NCBI GenBank assembly: GCA_951812955.1
Contig: OX638340.1
Location: 1,024,001-1,088,000, forward strand
Length of the DNA stretch: 64,000 nt
Reading direction: 5' to 3'
From: an uncultured Gemmatimonadota bacterium
GTDB lineage: Bacteria; JAAXHH01
Under the pieces are notes generated by a model. The model was not told the DNA's origin, did no database searches, and was given only the letters and a program-made list of their open reading frames with translations. Made by a program: the position numbers and the translations under genes. Shown in pieces: positions 95-57,900 of this stretch. Position 1 is the first letter of the stretch. The number at the start of each line of letters is the position of its first letter.

Positions 95-961
95 TTAGAG
101 CATGAACCGTTTCAGGTGGGCCCGCGCGCGGACGAAACCCTCCTCTTCCAGATCCCACGAGCTATAATACCGGCCGTCCTCATGCTCGATGCTGAGTATG
201 CCGTCGTACCCGAAATCCTCGAGCCGTTTCATGATTTGCGCCCAGTCGGCCAGGCCCTCGCCGGGTATACAATACCGCCAGTAGCCTTCGCCGAAAGCGA
301 CCCGTGATTCGAAGGAAGGTTTGATTCTACCGTAAAGATAGAGCGCTTCCTCGTCGAACATGGTGTCCTTGGCGTGGACATGGTGTGCCCGGTGGCCGAA
401 TTCATTCAGGAAGCGCATCGGGTCCACACCCAGCCTGATCAGGTGCGAGGGATCGTAGTTGATCCCGAAGGCGGGCGATGGGCAGGCCTCGAACATGGCA
501 CGCAGCATCTCGGGCGTCGCGCCGATCCGCTCATGGTGGGTAGATCCACCGGGCCAGCCCTCTAAGGCGATGGTCGCCCCTCTGGATTCGGCAAAATCCG
601 CGATATCGGGCATGGTGCGCTTCCACTGTTCGAAAGTCGCATCGCGTCCCTGGGCGGGGTCCCCGGGTGCCGGCGCCACATAGAACATATTGGTCACGCC
701 ATGGTCCACCGCGCGCTGTATGGAATCCCTGGACTCGCCCAGCGCATGTTCCCGCTGTCCGGCGTCTTCACTCAACAGTTCCGTGCCGGCGACCAGGTCT
801 ACCTGGCCGATGGCCACGCCGTGTGTTTCGGCGGTCCGGACCTTGTCCCCGTCGATCCGGGAAATGTCGATCGTATCGAACCCCTTTTCGGCCATCCACG
901 CGCAGACCGACTCAAATGGCATTTCGTTCAATCGGCCCGTAGTGCGAATCCCCACTCTCAT
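95..961 (-). CDS. sugar phosphate isomerase/epimerase (xylose-isomerase-like TIM barrel)
   Basis: 288-aa ORF; TIM-barrel family pattern with conserved His/Glu/Asp metal ligands (HHVHAKD, SIEHED). Confidence 0.75.
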   Translation of the reverse strand: MRVGIRTTGRLNEMPFESVCAWMAEKGFDTIDISRIDGDKVRTAETHGVAIGQVDLVAGTELLSEDAGQREHALGESRDSIQRAVDHGVTNMFYVAPAPGDPAQGRDATFEQWKRTMPDIADFAESRGATIALEGWPGGSTHHERIGATPEMLRAMFEACPSPAFGINYDPSHLIRLGVDPMRFLNEFGHRAHHVHAKDTMFDEEALYLYGRIKPSFESRVAFGEGYWRYCIPGEGLADWAQIMKRLEDFGYDGILSIEHEDGRYYSSWDLEEEGFVRARAHLKRFML

Positions 962-1104
962 CGTGACTCTCCTTCAGATTTGAAAAAACGTCGTTGACAC
1001 AGTCGCCGGTCAATGTATATGAACCTGCATGGGGTCGCAAGGCAAAGCAGCCCTTTGAAACCGCAGACCATATGTGATTCGACTGGGACTGCAGAAAGGA
1101 CAAT

Positions 1105-1656
1105 TTGACCAGGAACACGCGACTGGCCACGGCCTCCCTGATGGCGGCGCTGACCGCGGTGAGCGCCTACGTAATCCTGCCCATTGGCCCGGTGCCGATC
1201 ACCATGCAGACCTGCTTCGTCCTGCTCTCCGGCGCGGTGCTCGGCAGCCGCTGGGGCGCCGGAAGCCAGATCGTCTACGTTTGTCTCGGCCTGGCGGGCA
1301 TCCCGGTATTCGCCGGCGGCATGAGCGGCCCCGGAGTCGTGATTTCGCCGACTTTCGGCTACATCGCAGGATTCGTGCTGGCCGCGTTTCTGACCGGAAA
1401 ATACCTGGAGCGTTTTTCCAGGAACAGCGTAACGCATCTCGCCGCGGGCATGCTGATCGGGCAGGCGGCCATCTGGGGATGCGGCCTGTTGTACCTCCAT
1501 GCCTATTTCAATCTGTACGCGGGCGTGGAGACCTCGTGGCGCGGCGCCATTGCCATGGGACTGCTTCCCTTCATCCCCTTCGACCTGGTCAAGCTCGTAC
1601 TCGCGTTGTCCGTCAGCCGCACGTTGTCCAGGTATACGCCTTGGGAAACTGCATGA
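1105..1656 (+). CDS. bioY: biotin transporter BioY (ECF-type S component)
   Basis: 183-aa polytopic membrane protein; N-terminal PIGPVPITMQTCFVLLSGAVLGSRWGA matches BioY signature region. Confidence 0.8.
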   Translation: MTRNTRLATASLMAALTAVSAYVILPIGPVPITMQTCFVLLSGAVLGSRWGAGSQIVYVCLGLAGIPVFAGGMSGPGVVISPTFGYIAGFVLAAFLTGKYLERFSRNSVTHLAAGMLIGQAAIWGCGLLYLHAYFNLYAGVETSWRGAIAMGLLPFIPFDLVKLVLALSVSRTLSRYTPWETA

Positions 1657-1779
1657 GGTCTTGAGACCGGCGACCGCTCCCCTGCGCGAAGCGGCGGCAG
1701 ACACCTCGCTGTTGACACGACAACGGCGGATCAGTATAGTCTTTACCTTCCGGGATCGCGCGACAGCGCCGGTCCCATC

Positions 1780-3534
1780 ATGTACACAACATCTTCAGGT
1801 AATCCCATGAAGGAATGGACACGATCGATCCGGGTTGCGTGTTCGCGCTTTCCGGCCTTATCCGCGCGCGGCCGTATAGCCGCCGTCTCGACATGTCTGC
1901 TCGGGTTCCTGCTCGGATTCCTGCCGGCCGGTACGCTGACCGGCGCCGTCCCAGTGGTCAATTCCATTGGAAAACCGATGCCGCCGGACGCGGCGCCCCT
2001 GGACCAGCAGGTGTTCCGCTACACGCTGGTCGAGCCTCTGACCTTCGACGTCAGTATCAACATTTACGAGGGCCAGGGAGCGCTTACGCTGTTCGAGCGC
2101 CTGGTCATGCTCGACAAGAACCTGGAGCTGGTCGGCGCGGCGGCTTCCTCGTGGGAGCAGTCGGCGGACGGGCTTCGCTGGACGTTCAAACTCCGTCCCG
2201 ATGGGAGATGGAGTGATGGACGCAGGGTCACGGCACACGACTACGAATACACCTACAAGCGGTTCCTCGATCCGGCCGTGGCAAGTCCCTACGCCTTCTT
2301 CTACTACGAAATCAAGGGCGCCCGCCCGTTCAACCAGGGCAGTGTTACCGATCCATCAACCGTGGGCGTGCGTGCCCTGGACGACCTCACGCTGGAGATC
2401 GAAACGGAGAAGCCCTGTCCCTATCTGCCCTTTATTGTGGCTTTCACCGGATCGGGACCGGTACCCCGGTGGCAGGTGGAAAAACACGGGGTACTTTGGA
2501 GCGAAGCCGGGAACCTGGTTTCCAATGCGAGCTACACCCTATCTGAATGGCAAAAGGGCAGGCAGGCCACGCTGACCCTCAATCCCTACTATACCGGTCC
2601 CCATAAGGGGTATCTCGAGAAAATCGTCCAGATATTCACCACGGGACACCCGGGTACCCCGCCGTACGAGAACGACGAAATCGACTATCTCAGGGTCCTG
2701 TTGACCGACCTGCCGTTTATTGAGAACCATCCAACCCTGAAATCCGAGCTTGTATACTACGCCTTTCCGGAAACGTGGTATCTTTTTTTCAAGACCCGCG
2801 AGCCGCCATTCGACGATGTACGGGTGCGGCGGGCGATCAGCCACGCCATCGACCGCGAGGCCTTGTGCACCGTCGTGCTGCGAAATACGGGCGTACCCGC
2901 ATACTCCATGTTGCCTCCCAGATTCCCAGGCAGCGCGGATTCGTCCATACAGGCAATCCAGGCTTACGACACCGAACGCGCCAAGGCCCTGCTTGCCGAA
3001 GCGGGCTATCCCGATGGAAAGGGGTTTCCGGTCATCGATTTCTGGATAGGCAAGACCAATCCCCAGATCAGTTACACCGCCCAGGCCGTGCAGGCGATGC
3101 TTGGAAATACCCTGGGGATGCGTATGCGGATGAGAGGTTCGGAGGACAAGGTGTACCGGGACAACATGTACAAGTGGAACATCCCCATGGGGCTTGGAGG
3201 ATTCAATGCGGACTATCCCGATCCGAACAACCTGCTCGGTATGGTATGGCGTTCGCAGCCGAGGGGATTCGGGCGGCAGGACTGGCGTAACGAGGGTTTC
3301 GACCAGCTGATCGACGCGGCGGCGGACGAGTTGGATCACAACAAGCGCATGAGCATGTACCAGGAAGCGGAACGGATCCTGGCGGAAGACGCCGGCGGCG
3401 CATTTCTGTACCATAACATGACGGTGGATCTGCGCAAACCCTATCTCAAAGGGCTCGAAGTCAACAAGTTCGGATACACGATGTTCTCCTGGATCGGCAT
3501 CATGCATACGAAAATGTACATCGCCCGGCATTAG
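1780..3534 (+). CDS. ABC transporter substrate-binding protein, family 5 (peptide/nickel/opine type)
   Basis: 584 aa; hydrophobic signal-like N-terminus, typical SBP_bac_5 core; true start may be the MKEW Met at 1807. Confidence 0.8.
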   Translation: MYTTSSGNPMKEWTRSIRVACSRFPALSARGRIAAVSTCLLGFLLGFLPAGTLTGAVPVVNSIGKPMPPDAAPLDQQVFRYTLVEPLTFDVSINIYEGQGALTLFERLVMLDKNLELVGAAASSWEQSADGLRWTFKLRPDGRWSDGRRVTAHDYEYTYKRFLDPAVASPYAFFYYEIKGARPFNQGSVTDPSTVGVRALDDLTLEIETEKPCPYLPFIVAFTGSGPVPRWQVEKHGVLWSEAGNLVSNASYTLSEWQKGRQATLTLNPYYTGPHKGYLEKIVQIFTTGHPGTPPYENDEIDYLRVLLTDLPFIENHPTLKSELVYYAFPETWYLFFKTREPPFDDVRVRRAISHAIDREALCTVVLRNTGVPAYSMLPPRFPGSADSSIQAIQAYDTERAKALLAEAGYPDGKGFPVIDFWIGKTNPQISYTAQAVQAMLGNTLGMRMRMRGSEDKVYRDNMYKWNIPMGLGGFNADYPDPNNLLGMVWRSQPRGFGRQDWRNEGFDQLIDAAADELDHNKRMSMYQEAERILAEDAGGAFLYHNMTVDLRKPYLKGLEVNKFGYTMFSWIGIMHTKMYIARH

Positions 3535-3569
3535 AATCGATTACCCGGAAGGAGCGCACGGAACTTGAT

Positions 3570-4436
3570 ATGCTCGGAAGGAGTGAACGGACCTTGAACG
3601 TGGAAGGGATCGTTACCGAAGACATCGTACGACAATACCGGGAAGACGGCGCGGTGTGCATCAGAAAGGCCTTCGATCCGCACTGGGTGTCCGTCGTGGA
3701 AGCCGGCGTGTCACGCAACGTGGCAGAGCCCAGCGACTATGCGGGCGTTCTGAAAGCGGGCGAGGAAGACAGGGGCGGGTTCTTCGACGACTACTGCAAC
3801 TGGCAGCGGATTCCCGAATACGGCGACTTCGTGTACGCGTCACCCGCGGGGGCCATGACGGCGCAGCTGATGGCATCGGGGAGCTCAGTATTCTATCACG
3901 AGCATCTGCTGATCAAGTGGCCCGGCACGCTCAAGCGGACGCCCTGGCACCACGACCAGCCCTATTACCCGGTGAACGGCCGGCAGAACGTATCCCTCTG
4001 GATGCCACTGGACCCGGTTTCGAAAGCGTCCTGCGTACAGTTCATCAGGGGTTCCCACAACTGGGACCGCTGGTTCGTCCCCCGCAAGTTCGCCAGCGAG
4101 ACCAATTACGCCCTCGCGGACGCCTCGGCGAAGCCGATGCTCGGTGACCGGCCCTTCGAGGACGTGCCGCCCATCGACGAACACCTGGAAGACTACGATA
4201 TCCTCGCGTGGGACATGGAACCCGGCGACGTCATCGCCTTTCACATGTGCACGCTGCACGGCGCGGCCGGCAACCAGTCCCTCTCCGATGCGCGGCGCGT
4301 CCTGGCCACGCGCTGGCTCGGTGACGACACCCGGTTTACCGACAGGCCCTGGGAGATTTCTCCTAAGGTGACGGGAGGTCTGGCCCCGGGAGATCCCATG
4401 GCCTGCGACCAGTTCCCGCTGGTCTGGTCAGCATAA
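3570..4436 (+). CDS. phytanoyl-CoA dioxygenase (PhyH) family Fe(II)/2-oxoglutarate oxygenase
   Basis: 288 aa; WHHDQPYYP and HMCTLHGAAGN give the His-x-Asp...His facial triad context typical of PhyH. Confidence 0.75.
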   Translation: MLGRSERTLNVEGIVTEDIVRQYREDGAVCIRKAFDPHWVSVVEAGVSRNVAEPSDYAGVLKAGEEDRGGFFDDYCNWQRIPEYGDFVYASPAGAMTAQLMASGSSVFYHEHLLIKWPGTLKRTPWHHDQPYYPVNGRQNVSLWMPLDPVSKASCVQFIRGSHNWDRWFVPRKFASETNYALADASAKPMLGDRPFEDVPPIDEHLEDYDILAWDMEPGDVIAFHMCTLHGAAGNQSLSDARRVLATRWLGDDTRFTDRPWEISPKVTGGLAPGDPMACDQFPLVWSA

Positions 4437-4449
4437 AGAAGGAACCCAC

Positions 4450-5283
4450 ATGAACCATCAGTTAACGACCGAGCAGATCGCGTCTTACAGGGAAAACGGC
4501 TTTCTGATCATAGAGGATTTCCTGAATGAATCCGAACTGGAGACCTGGCGGTCGGCAGTGGAGGAAGCGGTGGCGTTGCGGGACGAGAACCGGCTGCCGG
4601 AGGGATCCTACCACCTGGACAGGAAGGTAACGGCGGGGGATGAAGCCGTATTCCGGCAGCGGATCAACCTGTGGATGGATCATGCCGGCGTTCGCACGCT
4701 GATGCTGGACAGTAGGCTGGGCAGAATGGCGGCCGACCTGGAAGGCGTCGAAGGAATACGGATCTGGCACGACCAGGCCCTGATCAAGCTGCCGTGGGCG
4801 AATCCCACCACCTGGCATCAGGACAATACCAAGTGGTCCTTCGTGTCAGACCACTCCATCACGATCTGGGTCGCCCTCGACGAGGTAACCATCCAGAACG
4901 GCTGCATGTTTTTCATGCCCGGTTCCCAAAAGAAACGGCGCGACGATTACCCGGCGGCGGGGAATCACGTGGGCGCCATGTTCGAAGCTTATCCCGATCT
5001 CGGCGCGATGGAACCCGTGCCCGTCGTCATGCCGGCGGGGGGCTGTTCCTTTCACAACGGACTGATCGTGCACGCCGCCAATGCAAATATGACGCCCTAT
5101 CCGCGAAGGGCCTTTACCTGCGCCTACATGCCCGACCACAGCCGTTTCAACGGCATACCCAATGTCCTTCCCAAGCGGATCCTGAATACCATTCAAATTG
5201 GCGATCCGCTTGAAGATGGAGACCAGAACCCGCTGATCCACACCTACGACCCGAAACGCGAAGGCCTCACCGGCCCCGTGTGA
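4450..5283 (+). CDS. phytanoyl-CoA dioxygenase (PhyH) family protein (tandem paralog)
   Basis: 277 aa; WHQDNTKW ... CSFHNGLIVHAANAN; directly downstream of 3570-4436. Confidence 0.75.
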   Translation: MNHQLTTEQIASYRENGFLIIEDFLNESELETWRSAVEEAVALRDENRLPEGSYHLDRKVTAGDEAVFRQRINLWMDHAGVRTLMLDSRLGRMAADLEGVEGIRIWHDQALIKLPWANPTTWHQDNTKWSFVSDHSITIWVALDEVTIQNGCMFFMPGSQKKRRDDYPAAGNHVGAMFEAYPDLGAMEPVPVVMPAGGCSFHNGLIVHAANANMTPYPRRAFTCAYMPDHSRFNGIPNVLPKRILNTIQIGDPLEDGDQNPLIHTYDPKREGLTGPV

Positions 5284-5295
5284 GGAGGTACATCG

Positions 5296-8004
5296 ATGAA
5301 CCGGTTTACCGTCCTGCCACTGTTATGCCTGATTCTTCTCTGCGGAACGATCTCCGGCGTTTCAAAAGCGCAGGACTTCGAGTATTGGCCCGGCACCGAA
5401 TACGATGCTTCGGTACCCACCGCGGAGGAGATCCTGGGCTACCGGATCGGTGACCGCATCACGCCCCACGCGGGCCTGATGAAATACCTGGAAGCGCTCG
5501 AGTCGGCGATGCCCGACCAGGTGCATATTCTCGAATACGCACAGTCCTGGGAAAGGCGCAGACTCGTCTATGCTTTCGTGGGATCGGCGGAACACATCGG
5601 CGCACTGGCGGCCATCGGCGAAGGCATGGAACGGCTGGCGGACCCGAGAATAACGTCCCGCGCCAGCGCCGACAGCCTGATTGCCTCCATGCCGGTAATT
5701 GTGAATCTCAGCTACAGCGTGCACGGAAACGAGATCTCCCCTTCGGATGCGGCGCTGCTCACGGCCTACCACCTGCTGGCGGCCCGGAACGACCCTGTCG
5801 TCGACCGGATCCTCAAAGAGACGATCGTGATGATCGATCCGGTCCAGAATCCCGATGGGCGGGACCGGTTCGTCCATAATTTCGAGATCGCCGAAGGACT
5901 GGAGCCGAATGCCAGTCCGCTTGCGGCCGAGCACAACGAACCCTGGCCCGGGGGGCGGACCAACCATTACTACTTCGACCTGAACCGCGACTGGATTTCG
6001 TTGAACCATCCCGAGACCCTGGGGAGGGTGAAGGTTCTGCAGGAGTATTTCCCGCCGGTCTTCGTCGACCTCCACGAAATGGGATCCAATGCCACCTATT
6101 ACTTCGCGCCAGAGGCCATTCCCTACAATCCGCACCTGGCCAGGGACCAGCGGGAGAGTCTCCAGCTCTTCGGAAAAAACAACGCGAAGTGGTTCGACCA
6201 TTTCGGATTCTCGTACTTCACGAGGGAAGTGTTCGACGCCTTCTATCCGGGTTACGGCGCGAGTTGGCCGTCCTACTACGGCAGCGTGGCCATGACGTAT
6301 GAACAGGCGTCGGCCCGGGGACTCGTCGTCCGAAGAAGCGACGAGTCGGTCATGCATTTCCGGGACACGGTGCGGCATCACTTCGTCGCTTCCATCGCCA
6401 CCAGCGAAACGGCGGCGAGCAACCGGGAGCAGCTACTGGCGGACTTCTATGCCTACCGGCAGTCGGCGATTGAAGAAGGCCGCAGCGAAGATATCCGGTC
6501 CTACATCCTGCCGCGCAGGTTGGCCGGCAACACCTCGGGAGTGGACAAGCTGGCCTGGCTCATGGCTTATCACGGCGTGGAGGTCCAGCAGGCCGGTTCG
6601 GACTTCCGGGCGGGAGGGAAGAACTATCCCGCGGGCAGTTACGTCATATCTCTCGCCCAGCCCGCCAAGCGCCTGATTCGCACGCTCATGGATACGCACG
6701 TACCGATGAGCGAGGACTTTATCGCGGAACAGGAGCGGCGCAGGAGCAAGGGCTTAGGCGACCAGATATACGACGTGACCGCGTGGTCCTTTCCGCTGAT
6801 GTACAACGTCGAAACCGTGGCCGTGGACCGCCAGGTCGAGGGAAATCTCACCATGGTCGATCCCGCCCTGGTTCCGCCGGGATCGATCACGGGAGGCCGC
6901 GCGGAAGTAGCCTATCTGGTTCCCTGGGGCACCCAGGCCGCGGGTCGGCTGCTGGCCGCTTCGCTGAGGGCGGGACTCCGCGCATTCAGTACCGACCTGG
7001 CGTTCGCGCAGGGGGACCGGCGCTACCCGACCGGCACGCTGATCTTCAAGGTCAAGGACAACCCGGATCACATGCACGAAACGTTGGCGGAGATCGCCGT
7101 CTCATCCGGAGCGGAAGTCATCGCGACCGATACCGGGTGGGTGGATGAAGGGCCTAATTTCGGCAGCAACAACGTCGTGTATATGCGCAAGCCCCGCATC
7201 GCCCTGGCGTGGGACAGGCCGACCCGGGCCTACAACGCCGGCGCCACCCGTTTCGTCGTGGAACGCCAGATCGGGTACCCGGTGACGCCTATCCGGACGC
7301 GCCAGATTGCCACTGCCGACCTGAGGGACTTCGATGTACTGCTGCTGCCCGATCCCGGGTTCGGCGCCACTTATGAGGACGTACTCGGCGAACGGGGAAC
7401 CAGGCGGATAAGGGACTGGGTCCGTACCGGCGGCACGGTGGTTGGCCTGGGCAGCGGCGCCACGGCCTTCCTCGCGGGTGGTATGACCGGACTTCTTTCG
7501 ACGGCCAGAGAGGACCAGGCCAAAGAGGACGGCGAAGGCGACGGCGATACCGGTGACGGAGATGCTGCCGGCAGGATATTCCGTACGGAAGAAGAATACC
7601 TGAGGGCGTTGAAGTCCGATGACTCCGCGCCGCCGGCCACGCAGGGCGTCCTCCTCAAGGCCGGGCTCGATCCCGACCACTGGTTGGCCGCCGGCAGGGA
7701 CAGCACCGTGAACGCCCTGGTCAGCGGCAGCTCGATCTTTACTCCGCTCAAGCTGGACGAAGGAAATAACGTGGCCGTCTTTCTGGGTCCCGACGAAGTA
7801 CTCGCCAGTGGGTTCGCGTGGGAAGGCAGCACGAAACAGTTGGCCTACAAGCCTTTGCTCATGGAAGAACGACACGGCCGCGGCCTGGCCATCGGGTTTA
7901 CGGCCGACCCGAACTTCAGGGCGTACATGGACGGTCTGAACATCCTGTTCCTCAACGCGATATTTCGAGGCCCGGCCCATTCGGGAGCGGCCGTGACCGA
8001 GTAG
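5296..8004 (+). CDS. secreted M14-family zinc carboxypeptidase (large, multidomain)
   Basis: 902 aa; signal peptide MNRFTVLPLLCLILLCGTISGVSKA; SVHGNEISP Zn-binding HxxE motif region of peptidase M14; acidic G/D linker at aa ~735-760. Confidence 0.8.
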   Translation: MNRFTVLPLLCLILLCGTISGVSKAQDFEYWPGTEYDASVPTAEEILGYRIGDRITPHAGLMKYLEALESAMPDQVHILEYAQSWERRRLVYAFVGSAEHIGALAAIGEGMERLADPRITSRASADSLIASMPVIVNLSYSVHGNEISPSDAALLTAYHLLAARNDPVVDRILKETIVMIDPVQNPDGRDRFVHNFEIAEGLEPNASPLAAEHNEPWPGGRTNHYYFDLNRDWISLNHPETLGRVKVLQEYFPPVFVDLHEMGSNATYYFAPEAIPYNPHLARDQRESLQLFGKNNAKWFDHFGFSYFTREVFDAFYPGYGASWPSYYGSVAMTYEQASARGLVVRRSDESVMHFRDTVRHHFVASIATSETAASNREQLLADFYAYRQSAIEEGRSEDIRSYILPRRLAGNTSGVDKLAWLMAYHGVEVQQAGSDFRAGGKNYPAGSYVISLAQPAKRLIRTLMDTHVPMSEDFIAEQERRRSKGLGDQIYDVTAWSFPLMYNVETVAVDRQVEGNLTMVDPALVPPGSITGGRAEVAYLVPWGTQAAGRLLAASLRAGLRAFSTDLAFAQGDRRYPTGTLIFKVKDNPDHMHETLAEIAVSSGAEVIATDTGWVDEGPNFGSNNVVYMRKPRIALAWDRPTRAYNAGATRFVVERQIGYPVTPIRTRQIATADLRDFDVLLLPDPGFGATYEDVLGERGTRRIRDWVRTGGTVVGLGSGATAFLAGGMTGLLSTAREDQAKEDGEGDGDTGDGDAAGRIFRTEEEYLRALKSDDSAPPATQGVLLKAGLDPDHWLAAGRDSTVNALVSGSSIFTPLKLDEGNNVAVFLGPDEVLASGFAWEGSTKQLAYKPLLMEERHGRGLAIGFTADPNFRAYMDGLNILFLNAIFRGPAHSGAAVTE

Positions 8005-32288: not shown

Positions 32289-34319
32289 TCAGACTTGCAG
32301 TTCGTGTCTTTGCTCGGAGATGACGAACTGCAGCTTCTTGGTCGGTTTCATAGACGGAAACGGATTGAACCGCAGCTTATAGTTTGCAGGCGACACATCG
32401 ATCTTGAAGTAGTGCGCCAGCATCAGCACGTTGACAGCCAATTGCAGTTCCATCCAACGGGTGCCGAGACACATGTGCGTGCCCAGCCCGTACGGAGCGT
32501 ACCCGGGGCTGCGATGCTCATTGCGCGACGGCAAGTAGCGGTCGATGTCGAAGGAGTGCGGGTCGGGGAAGATGTCACTCATGTAATGCGAGGCGGTCGG
32601 CGCGATGTGGATCCGTTCCCTCATGGGCAGTTCGTATCCCTCAAACACACACGTATTCATCACGTGTCGAACAGACATGGGAACGATCGGGTACATGCGC
32701 ATACACTCCATGAGGAAGCGGTGCGTGACGTCAATCGCGGATGGAGTGAAGGCCTCGATGTCCGGAACGCCGTTCCCGAATACGTCATCGGCTTCATTTC
32801 GGATTTTCTCGTAGAGTGCAGGCTGCGACGCCATGGCATAGACTACCAGACTGAACGTGTCACCAAGGTACACGCTGGCGATCAACGCCGCAGAAAAGGC
32901 AAACCGCAGGTTGGCCTCCGGGAGGAATTGCGGGTCGCTCGCGTGCAGGCTAAGGTAATCGTCCACCAGGTCCCGCGGTTTTCCGGCCCGTTGGGCGGGG
33001 GTGTGGCCCTCCTCGACTCTTTTCATCAGTGTATCAAGGGATTTCGCCCGGCGTTTCATGCCCGGGGTGTTCAGCGTGAACTCGGGCAGCATCCTGGCGA
33101 TATGCACGCTGAGCGCCCGTTCCTTGTACTGCATCAGATCGTCCATCAGGTCCTGCGTGTCGATGCCGATAAACAGGGGCGAGAGTTGGGCGTTTATCAT
33201 CTGCCGGCACATGGACGTAGCAGAATAGGAATCGCCGACATTCAAGCTTGCCATGTATTTCCAGGCATGATGGTAGAGCTTGTCCAGCTGCCCCGCAAGT
33301 CTCCCGCGTGAATACGCTGGAGACAAAGACTTGCGCAGGCGGAAATGGTCGGCGCCGTCCAGGGAAGGCAAGAGGCCGGAAGCGCCGTAGACTTTCTCGA
33401 AGTCTCTGAAATAGTCCTTGGCACTCAGGTACATGCGCCCGTGCTTATGCACCCAGCGGTTTGCCTCGGGTCCGACCAGGAAGACCATGGGCCGGGTGAA
33501 AGGAGGGCGGATCTCAAACACCGGACCGTAGTCCTGCGCAAGGTCCGCAAAGAGCGCGTGGAGGTTGCCGTCTCGAACATGCGGTTGCATCATCAGCTTG
33601 CGTAACGGTACCCTCGGAATCTTCTTTGTAAAACCGGGACGTCGAAGCGTCGGGCCGGCGAGTTTGTGGGAGACTGCTTCGGCGATGGACCGGCCGATCA
33701 CGTCCATCTTGCAGATCAACTCGATGCGTTGCTCCGTCTCGTCATCGAGTTGGAACATGAATCGAAACACATCGCACGTATTGACGAGGCAAATTACGAT
33801 AACGTCTCTCGGGTCGGGGATCTCGTTCATGAAGATCGCCCGGCTGATCCGCGTTCTGATGAACTGACTTGCAGTACTCGAATCGACATCGTTGTTCAAT
33901 TCCATCTTCCAGTCAGTACGGGCCAGCGTCCAGAACTCGCCATCGTGGTGTTCCAGGATCTTCATTTCTACCAGGCGATCCAGAACCGAATCTATAATGG
34001 TCTCCGCTCGGGGGGCCAGCCGTTCGATCCAGTACTGTGTATTGTGCTGATTTGGCTCATTTACGATTTCTTCCAGAATGAAATCGATGGTGGAATTGCC
34101 CGTTGGTGTCTGGTCGAGGACGAACAGAGACCCCGGGTCCGTGTCGATGCGAGATCTGATTGAAAGCTCCGCAAGTGCGGCACCGATTACGGCGCAGTTC
34201 AAATCCCAGCCAGGCACCTGGTGGAAGTAGCCAGTCTCCTCATTGAGGAGCATCAGGATGAGTTCCTGGGTCAAAGTAAGTGATTGGGGCTTCACGTCCT
34301 TTGCAGTATCAGCCATTAG
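32289..34319 (-). CDS. cytochrome P450 with N-terminal GPP34/GOLPH3-like domain
   Basis: Start MADTAKD (4-bp overlap with RND stop); N-terminal ~230 aa LTLTQELILMLLNEETG... resembles GPP34; C-terminal P450 with EXXR (ECMRMYP) and heme loop YGLGTHMCLGTRW. Confidence 0.75.
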   Translation of the reverse strand, partial: LMADTAKDVKPQSLTLTQELILMLLNEETGYFHQVPGWDLNCAVIGAALAELSIRSRIDTDPGSLFVLDQTPTGNSTIDFILEEIVNEPNQHNTQYWIERLAPRAETIIDSVLDRLVEMKILEHHDGEFWTLARTDWKMELNNDVDSSTASQFIRTRISRAIFMNEIPDPRDVIVICLVNTCDVFRFMFQLDDETEQRIELICKMDVIGRSIAEAVSHKLAGPTLRRPGFTKKIPRVPLRKLMMQPHVRDGNLHALFADLAQDYGPVFEIRPPFTRPMVFLVGPEANRWVHKHGRMYLSAKDYFRDFEKVYGASGLLPSLDGADHFRLRKSLSPAYSRGRLAGQLDKLYHHAWKYMASLNVGDSYSATSMCRQMINAQLSPLFIGIDTQDLMDDLMQYKERALSVHIARMLPEFTLNTPGMKRRAKSLDTLMKRVEEGHTPAQRAGKPRDLVDDYLSLHASDPQFLPEANLRFAFSAALIASVYLGDTFSLVVYAMASQPALYEKIRNEADDVFGNGVPDIEAFTPSAIDVTHRFLMECMRMYPIVPMSVRHVMNTCVFEGYELPMRERIHIAPTASHYMSDIFPDPHSFDIDRYLPSRNEHRSPGYAPYGLGTHMCLGTRWMELQLAVNVLMLAHYFKIDVSPANYKLRFNPFPSMKPTKKLQFVISEQRHELQV

Positions 34320-37300
34320 TGGCCTCCCTTCATCAGACGCAGATGAATGGTAGAAAGAGCGGGAACGACCATCATGAGTATGGCCGTGACGACGAGGATA
34401 CCGCAACCAAGCGATGCGGCAAAGGGAACCAGGAACTGAGCATGAATAGCGCGTTCCAGAATCAAGGGGGTGAAGCCGAGAAACGTAGTCAGAGAAGTAA
34501 GCATAATCGGACGAAAACGTCCCTTTGCGCCCTCTATGATCGCAGTTCGCGCCGGAGCGCCTTCCCTGAGTTTCTGATCGATGAAAACGATCATGACCAG
34601 TGAATCGTTCACAACCACGCCGCTCAGGCCGAATATACCCATGAAGGAGATTGCGCTCAGGGCTACTCCAAGGGCCCAGTGACCAAGGATCACTCCGATG
34701 AACCCGAACGGGATCACCGCCATGATGATGAACGGTTTGGTATAGGATCGTAAGGGGATGGCGAGCAGCACGAAGATCATGATCAGAGCGATCGCAAATC
34801 CGCGATACAGTGCATCCAGGGAATCGAGTTGTTGTTGTTGCTCACCTCCGAACGTGTAGGTCAGGTCCGGGTACACGGCGGTCAATTCCGCGAGGATTGA
34901 ATCCGCCAGGATGCTATTGGCCTGGTCACCGGAGATCACCGCGGCATCCACGTCCGCAGTGACCGTGACGACACGCTGACCATCCTTCCGCCGAATGGCC
35001 GGCGGCGACACGCCCGTGTTCAGCGCGGCCACACTGACGATCGGGACCTCGGCACCGGCCGGCGTACGGATCAGGTACCTTTCGATATCGGTGATGGAAC
35101 TTCGTTCATCGGCGGGCAGGCGCACGTAGACCCGAACCTCTTCACGGCCGCGCTGCACCCGGACGGCATCCGCACCGAAAAACGCGGCGCGCGTCTGTCC
35201 GGCCAACGCTTCCAGCGTGAGACCCAAAGTCCGCGCTTCCGGCCGGAGTTCAAGCTGTATTTCCGGGATACCCGGGGTGTGATCCGAACGGACATCGTAG
35301 ACGCCTGTCACTCCACGGAGACCATCGACCACCGAGTCCGCAATCCGGGCGAGTCGCACCGGATCCGGATGCGACAGCACGGCCTCGACCGGGTTGCCCA
35401 GGTCGAAGACCTCTCCGCTGAAGGTGACACCGCGCACGTAGGGCAGCACACCCACTTCCTCTCGCCATGCCTGCACAACCTCTCCGGTAGTGATCTGCCT
35501 TTGCTCCGCGCTCAGGAGTTTGAACTCGATGGTTGCAATGTTGGCCTGAGGATTAAGGGTGGGGGCTGGATTAAGCCCACCCTCGAGCCTCGAGCCCTGT
35601 CCGACGGTCACCATTACGCCGGTCAGCAGTGGTGGCGCATCCTCGGGGCGGCCGCGCGAAAGCCGATCGACGACCCGGTAACCTGCGGCCTCCAGTTCCT
35701 GTGCCACCTCGTATGTCCTTGGAGCGGTCGTCCCGTCGGGCATCTCCAGGATGACCGTCGCAAAATCCCCCTCCACGTCAGCAGCCAACGTGGTAGGTAC
35801 GATCCCCGCCGGTACCAGCGAGATACTAAGTACGAGTATTCCAACGGCCCCCCCCAGCGTGACCGCGGGCTGATCCGTCGCGAACCGTAACGCTCGGTCC
35901 AGGGGACCCTGCACGAACCGGTTCAGCGACTCGTTCACACGTCCCTGGATCCGCGCGAAGAACCGGTCGAAAGCACTTGTCGGCGTCCATTCCGGACCGT
36001 GCAAACGGGACAGGTGGTTGGGTAGTACCAGCAGTGATTCGATCAGGGAAACAAACAGTATGGCGATAAGGATGATCGGCAGTGCCCGCCATACGTCACC
36101 GACGCCTCCGGGTATGAACAGCAGCGGGACGAAAGCCACCACCGAAGTAAGGACCGCGAAGGTCAACGGCACTTTTATCCGTCGTACTCCGCGTATCGCA
36201 GCCACGACACCGGGCGTTCCCCGACTGCGTTCATATTGAATGTGCTCGGCTACGACGATGGCGTCATCGACGACAATCCCTATGGCGAGGACGAAAGAGA
36301 ACAGGCTGATGGTGTTAATAGCTACGTCGAGTACCATCATGACGGCCAATGTGCCTATACCCGAAACGGCGAGGCCGACGGCGACCCACAATGCAAGCCG
36401 GATTTCCAGAAACAGGCTGAGTGCGATCAACACCAGCAACAGACCCAGGATGCCATTCTTGACGAGAATATCGGCACGTTCCTCATAGGCTTGGGATTCG
36501 TCATTCCACATGGTGATGTGCACACCGTTCGGCAGAGCCGGGATCACCTCGTTTGCCATATGTTCCCGGACAGTCGTGGCGACGTCCATCACTTGTTCGC
36601 CGTTGGCTCGGTACACCTCGACGAATACAGCGGGATGGTTCTGATGCCGAACAATCAGGTCGGATTCCTGAAAACCATCGCGAACCCTGGCGATATCGCC
36701 AAGGCGCAAGGCAGTGCCGTCACTTCTGCTAAGCAGGATGATCTCTTCGAAATCCTGCTGGTCGTAGTTCTGGCCGAGGGTACGAACCCGCACCTGGGAT
36801 TCCCGGGTATCGATACTGCCGGCAGAAAGGTTCAGGGAACTGCGACGAATGGTATTGGCGACATCGGCGAGTGTCAGTCCAAGGGCTCTCAGCCGATGAA
36901 GCGGCACCTCGATGGAGATCTCGTATTTCCGAACACCACTGACCTCGACCTGGGACACGGACGGAAGCGCCGTGAGTCCATCCTCGATCTGATATGCCGT
37001 TTCCTTCAGCGAGCGTTCGGACACGTCGCCGTAGACGATGAACCGTATCATGCTCATACGGTTGTCCATCTCACGGAAACTGGGACGATCGGCACCGGCC
37101 GGGAAAGACTGGATGCGATTGACCGCGGACTCGATATCGTTGAGCGCCTGGACCATGTCCGTACCGAAATCCATTTGAATCCGCACGGATGCTATACCCG
37201 GGGCCGCTACAGACTTGACCGCCTTCACGTCATCCAACCCGCTGACCTGGTCCTCGATCTTGACGACGATCGACTCCTCGACCTCCTCCGGCGTGGCGCC

Positions 37301-51146: not shown

Positions 51147-53255
51147 ATGCCAGTCAATAGCGAGCCATCCTTCAACGAAGCACTGGCACGTGTCCTCCGG
51201 TCGAAGAATCCTCGCTGGCGGGACACGCTTGCCGCAGAACAACACCAAACGCTAAAGGGTGGCGGTAGACCTGACGTAATACTGCGGAATCCGCGCGGTT
51301 CGGTGGTTGTCGTCGAGACCGAGTACGTTCCAGCCCGTACGGTTGAGACGGAAGCCAATGATCGCATCGGTCGAGAACTCAGTGATTCAGGCGTGGCTAT
51401 TGAGCAGTGTGTCGCCGTCCGAGTACCTGATTACTTAAAAACGGTCCCTCAGCACGATCTCGACACCCGTACGGCGGTGGCGACCTACGAATTCTGCCTC
51501 TTCAGCGAAACGGACAATGCCGAGGATCCTTTGCGCTGGCCTGCGGATGGTTGGATCACAGGCGCGATCAACGATCTCGCGCTCCTGATCGAAACCGCGT
51601 CGATTTCAGAACGGATCGTCGCCCAAAGCCTGGACATTCTGGAAGATGGGATAAGCGAAACTGCCGTCCAGTTGCGCGAAGCCACTAAGGACAGACCAAA
51701 CGTAAGTTCCCGCATTGCGAAAACGCTCCTGCAAGAAGACGGCGTGCAGACTTCCCGAATGGCTATGGCCATCATCGCAAATGCGCTCACTTTTCAGAGC
51801 ATGCTCGCCGGGGTCTTTCACGTAAAGACGATCGACGATCTACGCCGGAACGGAGTCATCCCAAAGTCGGCGGTCCTGCGAGAATGGAAGCGCATCCTTC
51901 GAATAAACTACTGGCCCATATTCCACATTGCGAGCGAGGTCCTCAGTCCGATTCCGGATGGCATCTCCGCTCGTTTGCTGGAAAAGTTGTCGAATGTGTC
52001 GAGCGAGTTAGAAGCACACGGCATCACCCAGTCACACGACATCTATGGGCGAATGTTCCAGCGGATGATCAGCGACAGGAAGTTCCTCGCGACGTTTTAC
52101 ACCTTGCCCACGTCGGCGACGTTGCTCGCGGAGTTGGCAGTTGAGATGATAGACGTTGAGTGGAGCGATCCTGATGAGGTGACGAAGCTTCGCACCGCAG
52201 ACTTTGCATGCGGTACGGGTACGTTGATCACGGCGCTCTATCAGGCAATGCTGGGTCGCCATCGACGTGCTGGCGGCAACGATGAGGCGATTCACAAGAG
52301 CATGATGGAGACTTCTATCTTCGCGGCCGATATCATGCCGGCGGCTACCCATCTGACCACTTCGATGTTGTCCAGTACCCATCCAACAACCCCTTTCGAG
52401 CAGACCCGTGTCCATCTCTTGCCCTACGGCCAGCAGGAGGACGACGTAGGGGCCATTACCTTCGCGCTGGGCGCGCTTGACCTGATACGAGCGCAGCACG
52501 GTACCGGACTATTCGAGAACACGGGGATCATGGTACAAAGCGGTACAGAAAGCACGCAGGACGTCATTAGAGAAGCAGGTAGATTGACGGACACATTCCT
52601 GCTTCAGCACCACTCGATGGACGTGGTTATCATGAATCCGCCCTTTACTCGCCCGACCAACCACGAAGCGACCGATGTCCCTGTACCTTCTTTTGCCGGC
52701 ATGGGAAATAATGAGGCAGAGCAGGCAGCCATGTCCCAACTTCTGAGAGATATCCGGAGGGAAATTGACGATCCCGCCGGTCACGGAAACGCCGGACTCG
52801 CGTCCAATTTCCTTGACCTCGCTGACGCCAAGATCCGTCCCGGCGGCTTGCTTGCGCTCGTGATGCCACTCAGCCTTCTTCAAGGCAACGCGTGGAAGGC
52901 AAGCCGCGACCTACTGCAGGCAAAGTATGAGAGCGCAGTGGTCGTCAGCCTAGCATCCGTAGTTCGAGACAGTGCGGTATCATTCTCGGCCGATACCGGA
53001 ATGGGAGAGGTGTTGTTGATCGCACGACGCAGAACCGTACCAGACAGTCCAGAGCACACGAAAACTGAAGAGACAGTCGATACGGTTACCTATTCGCGCT
53101 GCGAAAGCCGCCGGCATCGGGAACCGAGGCAACAGGGATCGCATCGGCGATTCGTGACGCGATCCAGCAGGGCACCTCGCGAATCGCCATTGGAAACGCC
53201 CGTTACGGTATTCTCACACGAGGTACCTGGGACGAGGGCCACTGCGCGTCAGTGA
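51147..53255 (+). CDS. Type IIG-like restriction-modification enzyme, N-terminal nuclease-like region + N6-adenine methyltransferase domain (apparently frameshifted; continues in 53252-54103)
   Basis: Motif I DFACGTGT, motif IV MNPPF (MmeI-like NPPF); last ~55 aa are Arg-rich wrong-frame read-through; the -1 frame from ~53069 reads as good protein into the next ORF. Confidence 0.6.
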   Translation: MPVNSEPSFNEALARVLRSKNPRWRDTLAAEQHQTLKGGGRPDVILRNPRGSVVVVETEYVPARTVETEANDRIGRELSDSGVAIEQCVAVRVPDYLKTVPQHDLDTRTAVATYEFCLFSETDNAEDPLRWPADGWITGAINDLALLIETASISERIVAQSLDILEDGISETAVQLREATKDRPNVSSRIAKTLLQEDGVQTSRMAMAIIANALTFQSMLAGVFHVKTIDDLRRNGVIPKSAVLREWKRILRINYWPIFHIASEVLSPIPDGISARLLEKLSNVSSELEAHGITQSHDIYGRMFQRMISDRKFLATFYTLPTSATLLAELAVEMIDVEWSDPDEVTKLRTADFACGTGTLITALYQAMLGRHRRAGGNDEAIHKSMMETSIFAADIMPAATHLTTSMLSSTHPTTPFEQTRVHLLPYGQQEDDVGAITFALGALDLIRAQHGTGLFENTGIMVQSGTESTQDVIREAGRLTDTFLLQHHSMDVVIMNPPFTRPTNHEATDVPVPSFAGMGNNEAEQAAMSQLLRDIRREIDDPAGHGNAGLASNFLDLADAKIRPGGLLALVMPLSLLQGNAWKASRDLLQAKYESAVVVSLASVVRDSAVSFSADTGMGEVLLIARRRTVPDSPEHTKTEETVDTVTYSRCESRRHREPRQQGSHRRFVTRSSRAPRESPLETPVTVFSHEVPGTRATARQ

Positions 53256-54103
53256 TAAATGCTGAACTCGTAGATACCGTGAGAAACCTGCAAGATAGCA
53301 AACTGAAATTGCCTCGAATGGCTCAAGCGTATTCGGTTCCAACAACGATGCTGGGCGAGTTGGGAAAACGGGGCTTGGTTCACCGAGATATCAATGGGAT
53401 TGAAAGAAAATCCGTTCAAGATCAACAGGAATCAAAACGGTATTTTCGCGGTCCGTTCGATATCGTACATACGACAGACGAACCGACCTTTCCGGTTCTC
53501 TGGGGACATGCCACTGACCGCGAACGTTGCATCGTGGTTCAGCCTGACAGTGCAGGAATAATTCGCGAAGACTGTGAAGACGGCGCGCACGATGCCTGGA
53601 GAACGGCGACCAGGCTCCACTTCAGTCTCGACTTTCGCCTCAACTCACAATGCCTCGCCGCGTGCCTTACTCCAACCGAAACACTGGGAGGAAGAGCATG
53701 GCCCAATTTCCAGATGGACAGCCGTAGGAATGAGACTGTTACCGCGCTGTGGGCTAACACAACGCTGGGACTGATACTGTTCTGGTGGGCAGGTACCGTT
53801 CAGCAAGCAGGACGAGCCAACCTTACCATCAGCAGGTTGCCCGAACTGCTCACGCTGGATGCGCGTACGCTGACAGACGCGCAGCACAAGCAGGTAGATC
53901 TGATCTTCAAAGAGTTTGAGAAACGCCCACTGTTGCCAGGAAACGAGGCGTATCGGGACGCGAGCCGACAGGCGCTGGATGAGGCCGTGCTCATTGGCCT
54001 CATTGGACTGCCTGAATCAATTCTCGATCCTCTCGCGGTGCTTCGCCGGCAGTGGTGCAGTGAGCCGACCGTGCATGGTGGGAAAAGTACGCGACCCAAT
54101 TGA
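53252..54103 (+). CDS. C-terminal (target-recognition-like) part of the frameshifted methyltransferase gene
   Basis: 283-aa ORF beginning with GTG; same frame is open upstream to 53069 (RDSRYGYLFALRKPPASGTEATGIASAIRD...). Confidence 0.5.
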   Translation: MINAELVDTVRNLQDSKLKLPRMAQAYSVPTTMLGELGKRGLVHRDINGIERKSVQDQQESKRYFRGPFDIVHTTDEPTFPVLWGHATDRERCIVVQPDSAGIIREDCEDGAHDAWRTATRLHFSLDFRLNSQCLAACLTPTETLGGRAWPNFQMDSRRNETVTALWANTTLGLILFWWAGTVQQAGRANLTISRLPELLTLDARTLTDAQHKQVDLIFKEFEKRPLLPGNEAYRDASRQALDEAVLIGLIGLPESILDPLAVLRRQWCSEPTVHGGKSTRPN

Positions 54104-54167
54104 ATAGTTTTACGATAGTACTCAAACCCCAAAATGCAGTTGGCTTCCATATAGCACCGCATTCTAA

Positions 54168-56870
54168 TTGATCATGAATTGCGATGGTAATATGAGTTCA
54201 TCTAAAATCAGACCTGCTGAAAAACCGCTCGCAATGTTTGTAAGTAGTGTGATGGATGATGACCTTCAACCATATCGAGATACAGCAGAATCCCTGATCA
54301 ATTCCAGGTTCCTCACGTCTTGGGTTTTCGAATACACCCCCGCGAGTTCTGAATCATTAGACGAGTCCTATTTACGACACGTAAGAAATGCGGATTTCGT
54401 AATATGGATAGGTGGTGAAAAAACATCGAATCCTGTGAAGCGGGAGGTAAATGAAGCAATCATTCATCAAAAACGCCTGTTGGTTTTTCTACTACCTGCT
54501 AACACTAGAAATGCTGGTACTGAGGAGATAATTGAGACTATCAGTTCAAACAAAGGTCCAAAGTGGTGTAAACTGGACGATCGAAATATCGAAACATTTG
54601 AGGAAGCACTTGACTATACGATACAGGACGAATTTGCTCGGGCGATTAGAAATGATCATAGTTGGCAACGAATCGGCACATTGGAACGACTAAACCGCGA
54701 CTCTCGAGCAAGGTCTTTGTCCAGATTCATGGCATCCGGCCTTTCACGAAATCAAGCAAATCGTATGTTTAAGAAGGTTTCCGATCTTCCTGTCTTAGCA
54801 TCGCCTGAGTTACCGAAAGAAGGCGAGGTGAGTTTACTTGTTGGGACGCTGGGATCCGGAAAGTCATTCACGGCTGAAAAAGTGTATCAGGAGGTCCTTG
54901 ATCAATCTAGATCTCCGTTGGCTCCTGTACCTTTCTACATAACTGCACGTCATGTTAGAAATGGTTTGGATTCTTACATCAAACAACTCAATCCTGAGTT
55001 AGGTGACGTCACTTCAATTGGCGCCTCCATAGTAATTGATCAAATTGACGATCTTCCCAATTCCGATTCACGCCGACTGTATGAAGAAGCGCTTGCTCTC
55101 ACGTTATCGTGGCCCAAGACGAGGGTTCTACTCGTTAGTCGTCCTCAGCCGTGGAGCCGAGACTGTGTTGCTACTACACATGTAAGGGAGATGTCGTTAG
55201 AGGAAGTTGAAACTGTGGTAGAACTCGTGTCGGATTCAATTCGTTCCCAGCTTCTTTGGATAATGCCTCATGCTTTACGTCGATCCGTTCAACGCCCTCT
55301 TTTCGCGATCCTGCTTGCCAAGTATCTCGAATCTAATGAAGATCAAGTTCCAATTTCTATGGCTAAGTTACTCGACCGGATGGTACGCGAAGCTGTCGAG
55401 AACGCTGGCACTGAAAGCAATCAGTCGATAGAAAAGATGCTGAGGTCTTTGGCTGTAAAACTGACAGACGGCCATGCCGATGTGAAACTGACGGATCTTA
55501 CTATACCAATATCCGATAGAAACAGACTCTTAAATACACATTTGGTATATGAGGAATCTGAACGTCTGGATTTTGCCTTGCCTATCTTGCGGCAATGGTT
55601 CGCATTTGATGCCATATGTCAAAAAGAAGTAGATATCGTAGAATTATCACTTGATGCGGGACGACTCGATAAGTGGGAAGATGTATTAACCACTGCAGTT
55701 GAACTCGCCACTAATCAGATTGATGACATAGTAGAACCCATTGTCGTCAATAACCCATCTGTAGCGTCAGTCATTCTCGACAGTGCATTCGGCCATCTGT
55801 GGTATAGTAGTCCTGATTCTGATCTATCTGCCGACACGTTCGGGAAACATATTCGAAGGGCAATGACGGCATTTGCCAAAGGCATAGGCCCTCTAAGTGG
55901 GCTAATTGCTCCTGTGAATGAACAAGGAGAAGTAAAACCGCTCGGTGTAGCCAAATTGAACGAAGGCTATTACAAGACGAGTTGGTATGAGGGATCATCT
56001 GACATAGAAAACGTAGTCGGGGTTTCTTCGGAAGATGATTTGGCGATTTCTGATTGGCCCCACATTTTCTCGCGAACAAGGATAGACTCACCTGCGTGGG
56101 CTTGGCTGGATGTCAAGCACCAGTTGAGGGAGCGTTTGGAAAAACTACTAAATTGTTACGGTTTTCCTATTCGAAATACCTTCTTCTTGCATGAATCAGC
56201 TTGGGAATTAGCATCCTCGGCATTGAACCGACATTCGCAGTTAGAACCCCAAGTCTCTAGTGATGAAATGAATGACGTGCTCCGATGGATCCAGAAAAGA
56301 CCTTCGACCATGCTTCGACAATTTAGTCCAGAGACCGTAGTGTTAGCAGCAACGTACCTACAAGGACTCATTGACAAAAACAGGCCACTCCGAGCACCGT
56401 GGCCTGGGCCTGATCAGGCTTTGTCTAGTAGTAAGTGGGTGTGGGAACTGTATTCTCCTGAGAGGCTTCGCAAAAGGCTTCAACGCGTCTTAAGTGCATC
56501 TTTAGAAATGTATCAGGAAATCGTATCCAAATGGTTTATCACTATGTCCAACAGATTCGAGTTATTTTCACTAAATCCAGTACGTCTTGTTGGTTACTTA
56601 TACGTGCCTGAAGGAAAAACTTCCGACTTGAGAAGTGAACCATCCGTAACGTTCTATTTTGAACCGATTCGGGGACATGTGTCGTCAAGTGTGGATATCT
56701 TTCTCGGTTCAATTCCGTTAGCAGAATTAGAGTCAACTGTACTTAAAGTCAATCCAAATGCTATCACAATATGTACGTCTATGGTTGTCAGTATTTTCGG
56801 CAGACGTCCAGCAACTGATCAGGCTTACGATTGGCTGAAAGACGGTTTACGTTCCGCCAAGTGGGACTAA
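54168..56870 (+). CDS. DUF4062-like N-terminal domain + P-loop (STAND/NACHT-like) NTPase + long C-terminal domain; candidate antiphage sensor
   Basis: 900 aa; markedly AT-richer than flanks; N-term MFVSSVMDDDL...ADFVIWIGGEK (DUF4062-like); Walker A GTLGSGKS, Walker B IVIDQIDD. Confidence 0.6.
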   Translation: MIMNCDGNMSSSKIRPAEKPLAMFVSSVMDDDLQPYRDTAESLINSRFLTSWVFEYTPASSESLDESYLRHVRNADFVIWIGGEKTSNPVKREVNEAIIHQKRLLVFLLPANTRNAGTEEIIETISSNKGPKWCKLDDRNIETFEEALDYTIQDEFARAIRNDHSWQRIGTLERLNRDSRARSLSRFMASGLSRNQANRMFKKVSDLPVLASPELPKEGEVSLLVGTLGSGKSFTAEKVYQEVLDQSRSPLAPVPFYITARHVRNGLDSYIKQLNPELGDVTSIGASIVIDQIDDLPNSDSRRLYEEALALTLSWPKTRVLLVSRPQPWSRDCVATTHVREMSLEEVETVVELVSDSIRSQLLWIMPHALRRSVQRPLFAILLAKYLESNEDQVPISMAKLLDRMVREAVENAGTESNQSIEKMLRSLAVKLTDGHADVKLTDLTIPISDRNRLLNTHLVYEESERLDFALPILRQWFAFDAICQKEVDIVELSLDAGRLDKWEDVLTTAVELATNQIDDIVEPIVVNNPSVASVILDSAFGHLWYSSPDSDLSADTFGKHIRRAMTAFAKGIGPLSGLIAPVNEQGEVKPLGVAKLNEGYYKTSWYEGSSDIENVVGVSSEDDLAISDWPHIFSRTRIDSPAWAWLDVKHQLRERLEKLLNCYGFPIRNTFFLHESAWELASSALNRHSQLEPQVSSDEMNDVLRWIQKRPSTMLRQFSPETVVLAATYLQGLIDKNRPLRAPWPGPDQALSSSKWVWELYSPERLRKRLQRVLSASLEMYQEIVSKWFITMSNRFELFSLNPVRLVGYLYVPEGKTSDLRSEPSVTFYFEPIRGHVSSSVDIFLGSIPLAELESTVLKVNPNAITICTSMVVSIFGRRPATDQAYDWLKDGLRSAKWD

Positions 56871-56898
56871 TTCATTCAGTTTCAGATACCTTTGATTC

Positions 56899-57900
56899 AT
56901 GGCTTACGAATCCCGTATGACCGAATTCAGGAAAGCGAGAGACCGCGGTGCCAAATACCTGCTTCGCCAGGTACACGCGGACGGCAGTTTCGGCAATCCC
57001 GTTCTCGGCGTAACCGAATACTACAAGGCGCCGGCCGCGTTTCTCGTGTGTGGACTGTCCCATGCCGCGAATCGACAGCTAAACTGGATCAGGCACAACG
57101 GCTTCCTGCCGAACGGTGATTTCGGTCCAAGACCCGCCAGCGAACGCAACAGTTACTATTACACCTACCACAATGCCTGGGTGATCAAGGCGGCCCACCG
57201 CATGGGCGCTTTCGACCTCGCCCGGCGCGGCATGGACTTCCTCCTCGGATTCCGCGACCCGGCCAGCGGCGGTTTCTACTCCCACCCGATGGCGCGCGAC
57301 GATACGACCGAGCAGGACCTGTGGGTCGTGAGCGGCATAGGCTGGTGCGCCGTTTACACCGGAAAGCTGGACGTGGCCAGGGGCATCGGCCGCTGGATGC
57401 GTCGCCTGATGGAGGATCAGCCCGATTACCCCAGTGCGTTGTGGACGGTCTACAGCCGCGACCGCGGACTGATCACCGAGGTGCTGGACGGCGACGATTT
57501 CAGGTACGTGCTGACTCGGGACGAGTCGCGCGACCAATCCTTCTACCACCCAGGCATCGCGGCTGGCTTCCTGTGCCGCCTCTACATGGCCACGGGCGAG
57601 GAGGAATGGCTGGATCTCGCGAGGGAGTACATGCGGTTCTGCGAAAACGTGGGGGACTATCACTTCAAGTTGCTGCGCGCGGGCAAGGTCGGTTGGGCTG
57701 GCGCGATGCTCTACACGCTCACGGGGGAAGTAAAGTACCGCGACATGGCGGTCAGGGTAGGAAACAACCTGGTCCAGGCCCAGTTGGCAAACGGCGCATG
57801 GGCCTGGCCGGAGATGGGGCTGACCGGACCGCACAACGACATCACGGCCGAAATGGTCGTATGGCTCGACGAGATCCACCAGGCGGTTGGCGACGGCTAG
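56899..57900 (+). CDS. prenyltransferase/squalene-oxidase-repeat (alpha/alpha-toroid) protein
   Basis: 333 aa; repeated DGSFG / SGGFY / NGAWAW motifs. Confidence 0.45.
   Translation: MAYESRMTEFRKARDRGAKYLLRQVHADGSFGNPVLGVTEYYKAPAAFLVCGLSHAANRQLNWIRHNGFLPNGDFGPRPASERNSYYYTYHNAWVIKAAHRMGAFDLARRGMDFLLGFRDPASGGFYSHPMARDDTTEQDLWVVSGIGWCAVYTGKLDVARGIGRWMRRLMEDQPDYPSALWTVYSRDRGLITEVLDGDDFRYVLTRDESRDQSFYHPGIAAGFLCRLYMATGEEEWLDLAREYMRFCENVGDYHFKLLRAGKVGWAGAMLYTLTGEVKYRDMAVRVGNNLVQAQLANGAWAWPEMGLTGPHNDITAEMVVWLDEIHQAVGDG

Follow-up and report, generated by a model that had tools for sequence, protein, structure and literature searches.

The closest described counterparts of the gene considered here are the R-M (restriction-modification) enzyme RM.BpuSI (Type IIG/IIS; PDB code 3S1S) and the MmeI family (Type IIL; MmeI, PDB code 5HR4; DrdV, PDB code 7LO5). 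Members of the latter methylate a single strand and cleave DNA about 20/18 nt away. In BpuSI and MmeI, a shared target-recognition domain (TRD) directs both activities of the enzyme, and both proteins also have a helical connector (PMC3185434, PMC4833311). The published domain map of MmeI runs over residues 1-155, 156-300, 301-620, 621-825, and 826-919, and its methyltransferase motif IV reads NPPF (PMC4833311). Besides these, single-chain Type IIG enzymes that are phase variable are known, as exemplified by cj0031 of Campylobacter jejuni, which is switched by frameshifts (PMC4889913). A further parallel is offered by PglX/BrxX, which is without an N-terminal nuclease domain and requires the six-gene BREX operon.

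Against this background, we studied a gene at positions 51147 to 54103 of a 64,000-nucleotide stretch (hereafter, the window) of contig OX638340.1 from an uncultured Gemmatimonadota bacterium. The ORF listing gives two overlapping reading frames on the forward strand, namely, ORF1 (51147-53255; frame 0; 702 aa) and ORF2 (53252-54103; frame 2, that is, -1 relative to ORF1; 283 aa; GTG start). A first-pass annotation had read these as one MmeI-type enzyme of about 985 aa that was split by a frameshift, and both ORFs were confirmed. Searching 5.8 billion proteins with a 984-aa trial fusion of ORF1 and ORF2 recovered 4,140 matches, of which the best 120 are nearly all 960 to 1050 aa long and cover 100% of the query; more than 100 are full-length homologues, and those at 100% coverage span 964 to 1053 aa. 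The top score of 2066 bits places the match far beyond chance. P0001 (989 aa), the closest homologue, shares 92% identity. Colinearity over the full length also holds for most of the top 150 cluster representatives from a profile search. Homologues thus run to about 985 aa instead of stopping near aa 650 with the downstream ORF belonging to an independent family. ORF1 and ORF2 are the two halves of one gene. A candidate for an independent TRD-only family, a match on plasmid pDSHI04 of Dinoroseobacter shibae (L011 5001-5687), was rejected, as it is what remains of a family member (36% identical to aa 729-955), with an IS110 and an IS3 transposase on either side.

The lesion can be placed to the nucleotide. 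In a syntenic DNA alignment, the window reads CCTAT-TCGCG where four related loci (L001, L002, L007, and L008) read CCTATGTCGCG; a fifth, L009, reads CCTACGTAGCA and carries the G likewise. L001 and L002 align with the window at 93.7% DNA identity over 10 kb. The single missing G belongs to the Val650 codon GTC and falls between 53093 and 53094, and restoring it yields an uninterrupted protein of the anticipated 985 aa. Close homologues read ...EETVDTVTYVALRKPPASGTEA... across the junction, for which the window has EETVDTVTY (frame 0) and ALRKPPASGTEA (frame 2). The break hence lies within the range proposed earlier (53066-53095) but at its 3' end; similarly, the frame does degenerate as had been described, although genuine sequence extends to aa 649 (EETVDTVTY being residues 641 to 649) and not merely to about aa 640. 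Frame 2 is open from 53069, following a TGA at 53066, and the frame-2 residues RDSRYGYLF, formerly taken as protein, are not genuine, the real junction being ...TVTY(V)ALRKPP.... The gene thereby falls into a 5' part in the original frame (51147..53093, + strand; aa 1-649), which is colinear without gaps with P0001 and L001 and comprises the nuclease, helical connector, methyltransferase, and variable linker; an Arg-rich, out-of-frame ORF1 tail of 53 aa (53094..53255, + strand) that ends at the TGA at 53253-53255 and whose translation is absent from homologues; and a 3' part in frame 2 (53094..54103, + strand; aa 650-985 once the frame is repaired) that encodes the TRD and a C-terminal helical bundle. 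Of this 3' part, ORF2 as called takes in only what follows from the GTG at 53252. Programmed -1 frameshifting was considered and rejected, since ACC TAT TCG is without an X XXY YYZ slippery heptamer.

With respect to the origin of the deletion, we lean slightly toward a genuine, very recent inactivating mutation, as read from sequence comparisons, rather than a switch. Over about 15 kb aligned to L001, it is the sole uncompensated indel in conserved coding sequence. Further, ten other large genes of the window (e.g., AcrB and hydantoinases A and B) match Pfam models end to end, so the window assembly is without a general indel problem. Disrupted alleles also recur in the clade, since an 83% identical relative (P0068) bears an independent frameshift near its C terminus, with a tail that corresponds to the alternative frame of window positions 53916-54107. 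The sequence downstream of the break shows no relaxed selection by either of two measures: dN/dS versus L001 (Nei-Gojobori) is 0.11 before and 0.10 after the break, the same values that intact gene pairs give, and of the family columns conserved at 95% or more, the window retains 78/79 downstream and 178/179 upstream. The lesion is therefore either very recent or artefactual.

A sequencing or assembly error, under which the organism's gene would be intact and encode an active 985-aa enzyme, is accordingly a serious alternative, which we consider plausible but short of an even chance. The undecayed downstream kilobase fits it equally well, and the G is present in each of the five related loci. 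ORF2 (P0323) is recorded in the public collection on one contig only, of 3,813,436 bp, which also carries the neighboring NTPase (P0268), so no second assembly confirms the deletion; among GTDB representative genomes, a scan recovered the intact allele alone, in OY762445.1, and a scan of JGI metagenomes returned no match to either allele. Arguing against an error are the position of the deletion outside any homopolymer, the lack of any further coding frameshift in the 15-kb synteny or the ten large genes, and the frameshifted allele of P0068.

To understand what the repaired gene would encode, we used AF2 with 48 homologues to model P0001; the model is of good quality (pLDDT 81; pTM 0.85). Its N-terminal domain (aa 1-152; 51147..51602, + strand) is modeled with a pLDDT of 93 and adopts the PD-(D/E)xK nuclease fold, with invariant residues E6, E31, P42-D43 (51270-51275), and E57-x-E59 (51315-51323), the latter two pairs being retained in 48/48 sequences. 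The canonical Lys position is occupied by Glu; BamHI is a precedent for an active enzyme with such an ExE site, having Glu instead of Lys. From this fold and the invariant acidic residues, the domain is predicted to be a nuclease. It is followed in the model by an all-helical connector (about aa 155-345; 51609..52181, + strand), a methyltransferase (about aa 346-640; 52182..53066, + strand), an S-subunit-like TRD (about aa 645-905), and a helical bundle (aa 911-977). All the motifs singled out by the first-pass annotation are found in ORF1, i.e., RPDV (aa 41-44), ETEY (aa 57-60), the motif I sequence DFACGTG (aa 352-358; 52200-52220), and the motif IV sequence NPPF (aa 497-500; 52635-52646); the last two are invariant among the aligned family members. 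Structural matches of the methyltransferase include TaqI, M.BseCI, CamA, and Type I M subunits, and those of the C-terminal part include S-subunit and MTase+TRD structures.

The family thus combines a PD-(D/E)xK-fold domain with a gamma-class N6-adenine methyltransferase, as in Type IIG enzymes; the TRD lies in the same polypeptide in the homologues but not in the window product, which is out of frame after 53093. In a Foldseek search of PDB with the whole model, BpuSI ranks first (E value of 5e-17 over 1111 columns), followed by DrdV, PglX/BrxX, CamA, and LlaBIII. Sequence identity of the family to BpuSI is only 7 to 11%, but the spacing of the nuclease residues E21/D60/E76/K78 of BpuSI (PMC3185434) matches that of the family's acidic residues, with Glu here where BpuSI has Lys. 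The family thereby differs from BpuSI in having ExE rather than ExK in the nuclease and NPPF rather than NPPY in motif IV; furthermore, the TRD of BpuSI is interrupted by an additional domain, and separate methyltransferases accompany that enzyme. The MmeI family shares the same five-domain order, the C-terminal helical bundle, and NPPF, yet its identity to the present family is 11 to 17%, its motif I reads FDPACGCG versus ADFACGTG here, and its catalytic Lys is replaced here by Glu. None of the Pfam MmeI models (N, hel, Mtase, TRD, and C) matches the window ORFs or five homologues at an E value of ≤0.1. The label "MmeI-type" is therefore apt for the domain architecture but not as a statement of family membership. 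Taking the model and these comparisons together, we propose that these proteins are probably single-chain Type IIG/IIL-like R-M enzymes for phage defense, constituting a large family that is as yet unnamed.

At the sequence level, curated libraries recognize no more than a weak gamma-class N6-adenine methyltransferase. Searches of the window ORFs against Pfam, NCBIfam, and PADLOC gave sub-threshold methyltransferase matches only, and none at all for ORF2; in a single-sequence search, P0001 retrieved no PDB chain at an E value of ≤1. The methyltransferase matches of the window protein include Alw26I (E value of 9e-6) and MAD2 (E value of 0.003), while the Pfam models Eco57I, N6_Mtase, and MTS stay below threshold for it and exceed threshold in some other members. 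The PADLOC MTase_II model matches 48/48 aligned members, and the Type IIG models match the motif I-IV stretch only. The family profile has one marginal match in PDB, to motif I of BrxX/PglX (E value of 0.02). These findings might be taken to mean that the family is a methyltransferase-only protein or a BREX/MADS-type component with no nuclease in its N-terminal domain: the top sequence-level matches are to methyltransferase models (MTase_II, MAD2, and PglX), the best PDB sequence match is BrxX motif I, the canonical ExK Lys is missing, and PglX/BrxX aligns in Foldseek with a TM score of 0.43 to 0.46 over about 1050 columns. We regard this as very improbable, given that the N-terminal restriction-endonuclease fold is clear, with its acidic residues spaced as in BpuSI, and that the partner genes are absent. 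Neither the window nor the six homologue contexts examined contain BREX operon genes (BrxA, BrxB, BrxC, PglZ, and BrxL) or MADS genes, and the homologues in those contexts have no separate S or M genes beside them.

Those contexts show the homologues as single genes in unrelated neighborhoods. One (L004) adjoins toxin-antitoxin-like genes, another (L005) lies within an integrated plasmid that also encodes a relaxase, ParA, and RepA, and in the Gemmatimonadota relatives the gene occupies a syntenic site with proS, apaG, and citrate synthase. L006 has tandem paralogues at 333-3224 and 3268-6156 (963 and 962 aa), perhaps a duplicated system in which the copies differ in specificity. Plasmid-borne homologues are annotated as "N-6 DNA methylase" or "hypothetical protein." The profile search, against 1.84 billion representatives of clusters at 50% identity, retrieved 4,940 proteins at an E value of ≤1e-3 and 1,824 at ≤1e-30. 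Two of the named matches to the fusion come from Gemmatimonadetes metagenome-assembled genomes (MAGs). The sample naming of L001, L009, L012, and L016 (labels KARI17 and PANK22) and of the Gemmatimonadetes MAGs suggests that the clade may be associated with marine sponges. An enrichment of R-M systems in sponge symbionts has been reported (PMC8163846).

By analogy with BpuSI and MmeI, the TRD of the intact enzyme would read a short asymmetric site, the methyltransferase would mark host DNA using S-adenosylmethionine (SAM), and the nuclease would cleave unmarked DNA at a distance. The single-G deletion shifts the frame just past the methyltransferase domain, in the strand of residues 647-652 with which the recognition module begins. 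The predicted ORF1 product would then consist of the nuclease, connector, methyltransferase, and 53 nonsense residues. With the TRD missing, this product is expected, on the same analogy, to have lost both methylation and restriction.

Two other readings of the split are likewise very improbable. Under the first, which was among the options raised by the first-pass annotation, phase variation would switch the window gene reversibly ON and OFF. It draws on the precedent of cj0031 and on other lineages of the family, which carry G11 or (CA)17 tracts and in which near-identical proteins sit in different frames at G11 tracts. In the window gene, a repeat search turned up neither a homopolymer of ≥6 nor any repeat exceeding (XY)3; the site reads TAT|TCG, the lost G being a lone G with T on both sides, and close relatives are likewise free of tracts there. 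Unlike cj0031, the window gene is thus tract free, with a frameshift that is a plain point deletion, and the option is not supported for it. The second, that ORF1 and ORF2 form a two-subunit enzyme with a nuclease-methyltransferase and a separate specificity subunit, like the Type IIB enzymes BcgI and BsaXI, can point to the overlap of the ORF1 stop with the ORF2 GTG (GTGA, 53252-55) and to known RM+S architectures (BsaXI), but homologues are nearly all single chains, that GTG is an ordinary Val codon of the intact protein, and as a start at 53252, the first in frame 2, omits a conserved stretch of about 52 residues (aa 651-702, modeled as a strand, a helix, and a sheet), no complete TRD would be supplied in trans.

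Frame polymorphism at repeats is nonetheless seen elsewhere in the family. Nonsense tails occur at profile positions 624-677 in about 10 of the top 150 representatives, and in the three that we examined (L012, L014, and L016) the gene is out of frame at a tract. In L012 and L014, the tract is a G11 in the methyltransferase-TRD linker (5864-5874 and 4885-4895, respectively), followed in L012 by an overlapping 318-aa TRD ORF; in L016, it is a (CA)17 (5066-5099) about 50 codons further on, just past the first conserved TRD block. The poly-G tracts of L012 and L014 are comparable to that of cj0031. A second poly-G tract of L012 (G9, 72-80) lies in another gene for an Eco57I-like methyltransferase, at its 3' end, with 4 kb between it and the downstream gene that bears the G11. 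Among mates of 90% identity clusters on different contigs and from different samples, both the Gly count and the frame differ: P0224, P0325, and P0326 share a frame that differs from that of P0324, and P0256 and P0328 show two different OFF frames, with P0330 being full length (947 aa). These differences are a candidate signature of repeat-mediated switching, as known for cj0031, and make these members candidate phase-variable Type IIG-like genes of metagenomic bacteria, the alternative being poly-G assembly noise.

The TRD-coding third of the window gene (53100-54100) has a distinct history. Here, DNA identity to the near-identical relatives drops from about 96% to between 80 and 85%, and dS is about 4 times higher (0.63 versus 0.16). 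The window is closest to L001 and L007 until about 53190 and thereafter to L008. This pattern indicates apparent recombinational mosaicism of the recognition domain. A placement of the deletion on the recombination breakpoint was rejected; the mosaic switch lies about 100 nt downstream, and the two are unlinked.

The neighbors of the gene in the window are citrate synthase, a secreted protein of 195 aa, and a STAND NTPase. The last, a DUF4062 + NACHT-like STAND NTPase of 892 to 900 aa, is encoded directly downstream (54192-56870, + strand) within an insertion spanning 54097-56916. Its GC content is 43 to 47%, versus about 62% for the host and 54 to 58% for the R-M gene, and its nearest homologues are 70% identical. 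It is missing in L001-L003, where the slot is instead occupied by a 0.8-kb segment with a 154-aa ORF; in L009, the same slot holds HEPN_AbiU2 and an amidase. The slot downstream of the R-M gene hence looks like a small hotspot of defense-gene turnover. Elsewhere in the window, on the minus strand, a 705-aa ORF (32289-34406) joins a GPP34 domain (aa 45-245) to the C-terminal half of a cytochrome P450 (aa 454-693), which points either to a fusion of an unusual kind or to read-through across two genes.

A broader synthesis would hold that the family is an undescribed Type IIG/IIL-like branch with an ExE nuclease, comprising about 4,900 cluster representatives at 50% identity and lacking a curated model, in which ON/OFF switching arises repeatedly at the methyltransferase-TRD linker in bacteria that are uncultured and probably host associated. 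Some lineages would have evolved G11 or (CA)17 tracts there whose length differs between samples, the hypervariable, recombining TRD behind it would diversify specificity, and the window allele would be an OFF variant at this junction that arose without a repeat. As a whole, this proposal is possible but rather unlikely, and we offer it only tentatively.

The window allele is by itself of little import, as frameshifts in R-M genes are routine, and its novelty is limited to membership in a large, unannotated, and divergent branch of a known kind of enzyme. The wider implication is that several thousand proteins, of which few are named, can be read as single-chain R-M enzymes with Glu for Lys in the nuclease. 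This family shows TRD mosaicism, a slot for defense-gene turnover, and, in some lineages, repeat-associated frame polymorphism, in metagenomic bacteria in which the dynamics of R-M systems are seldom examined.
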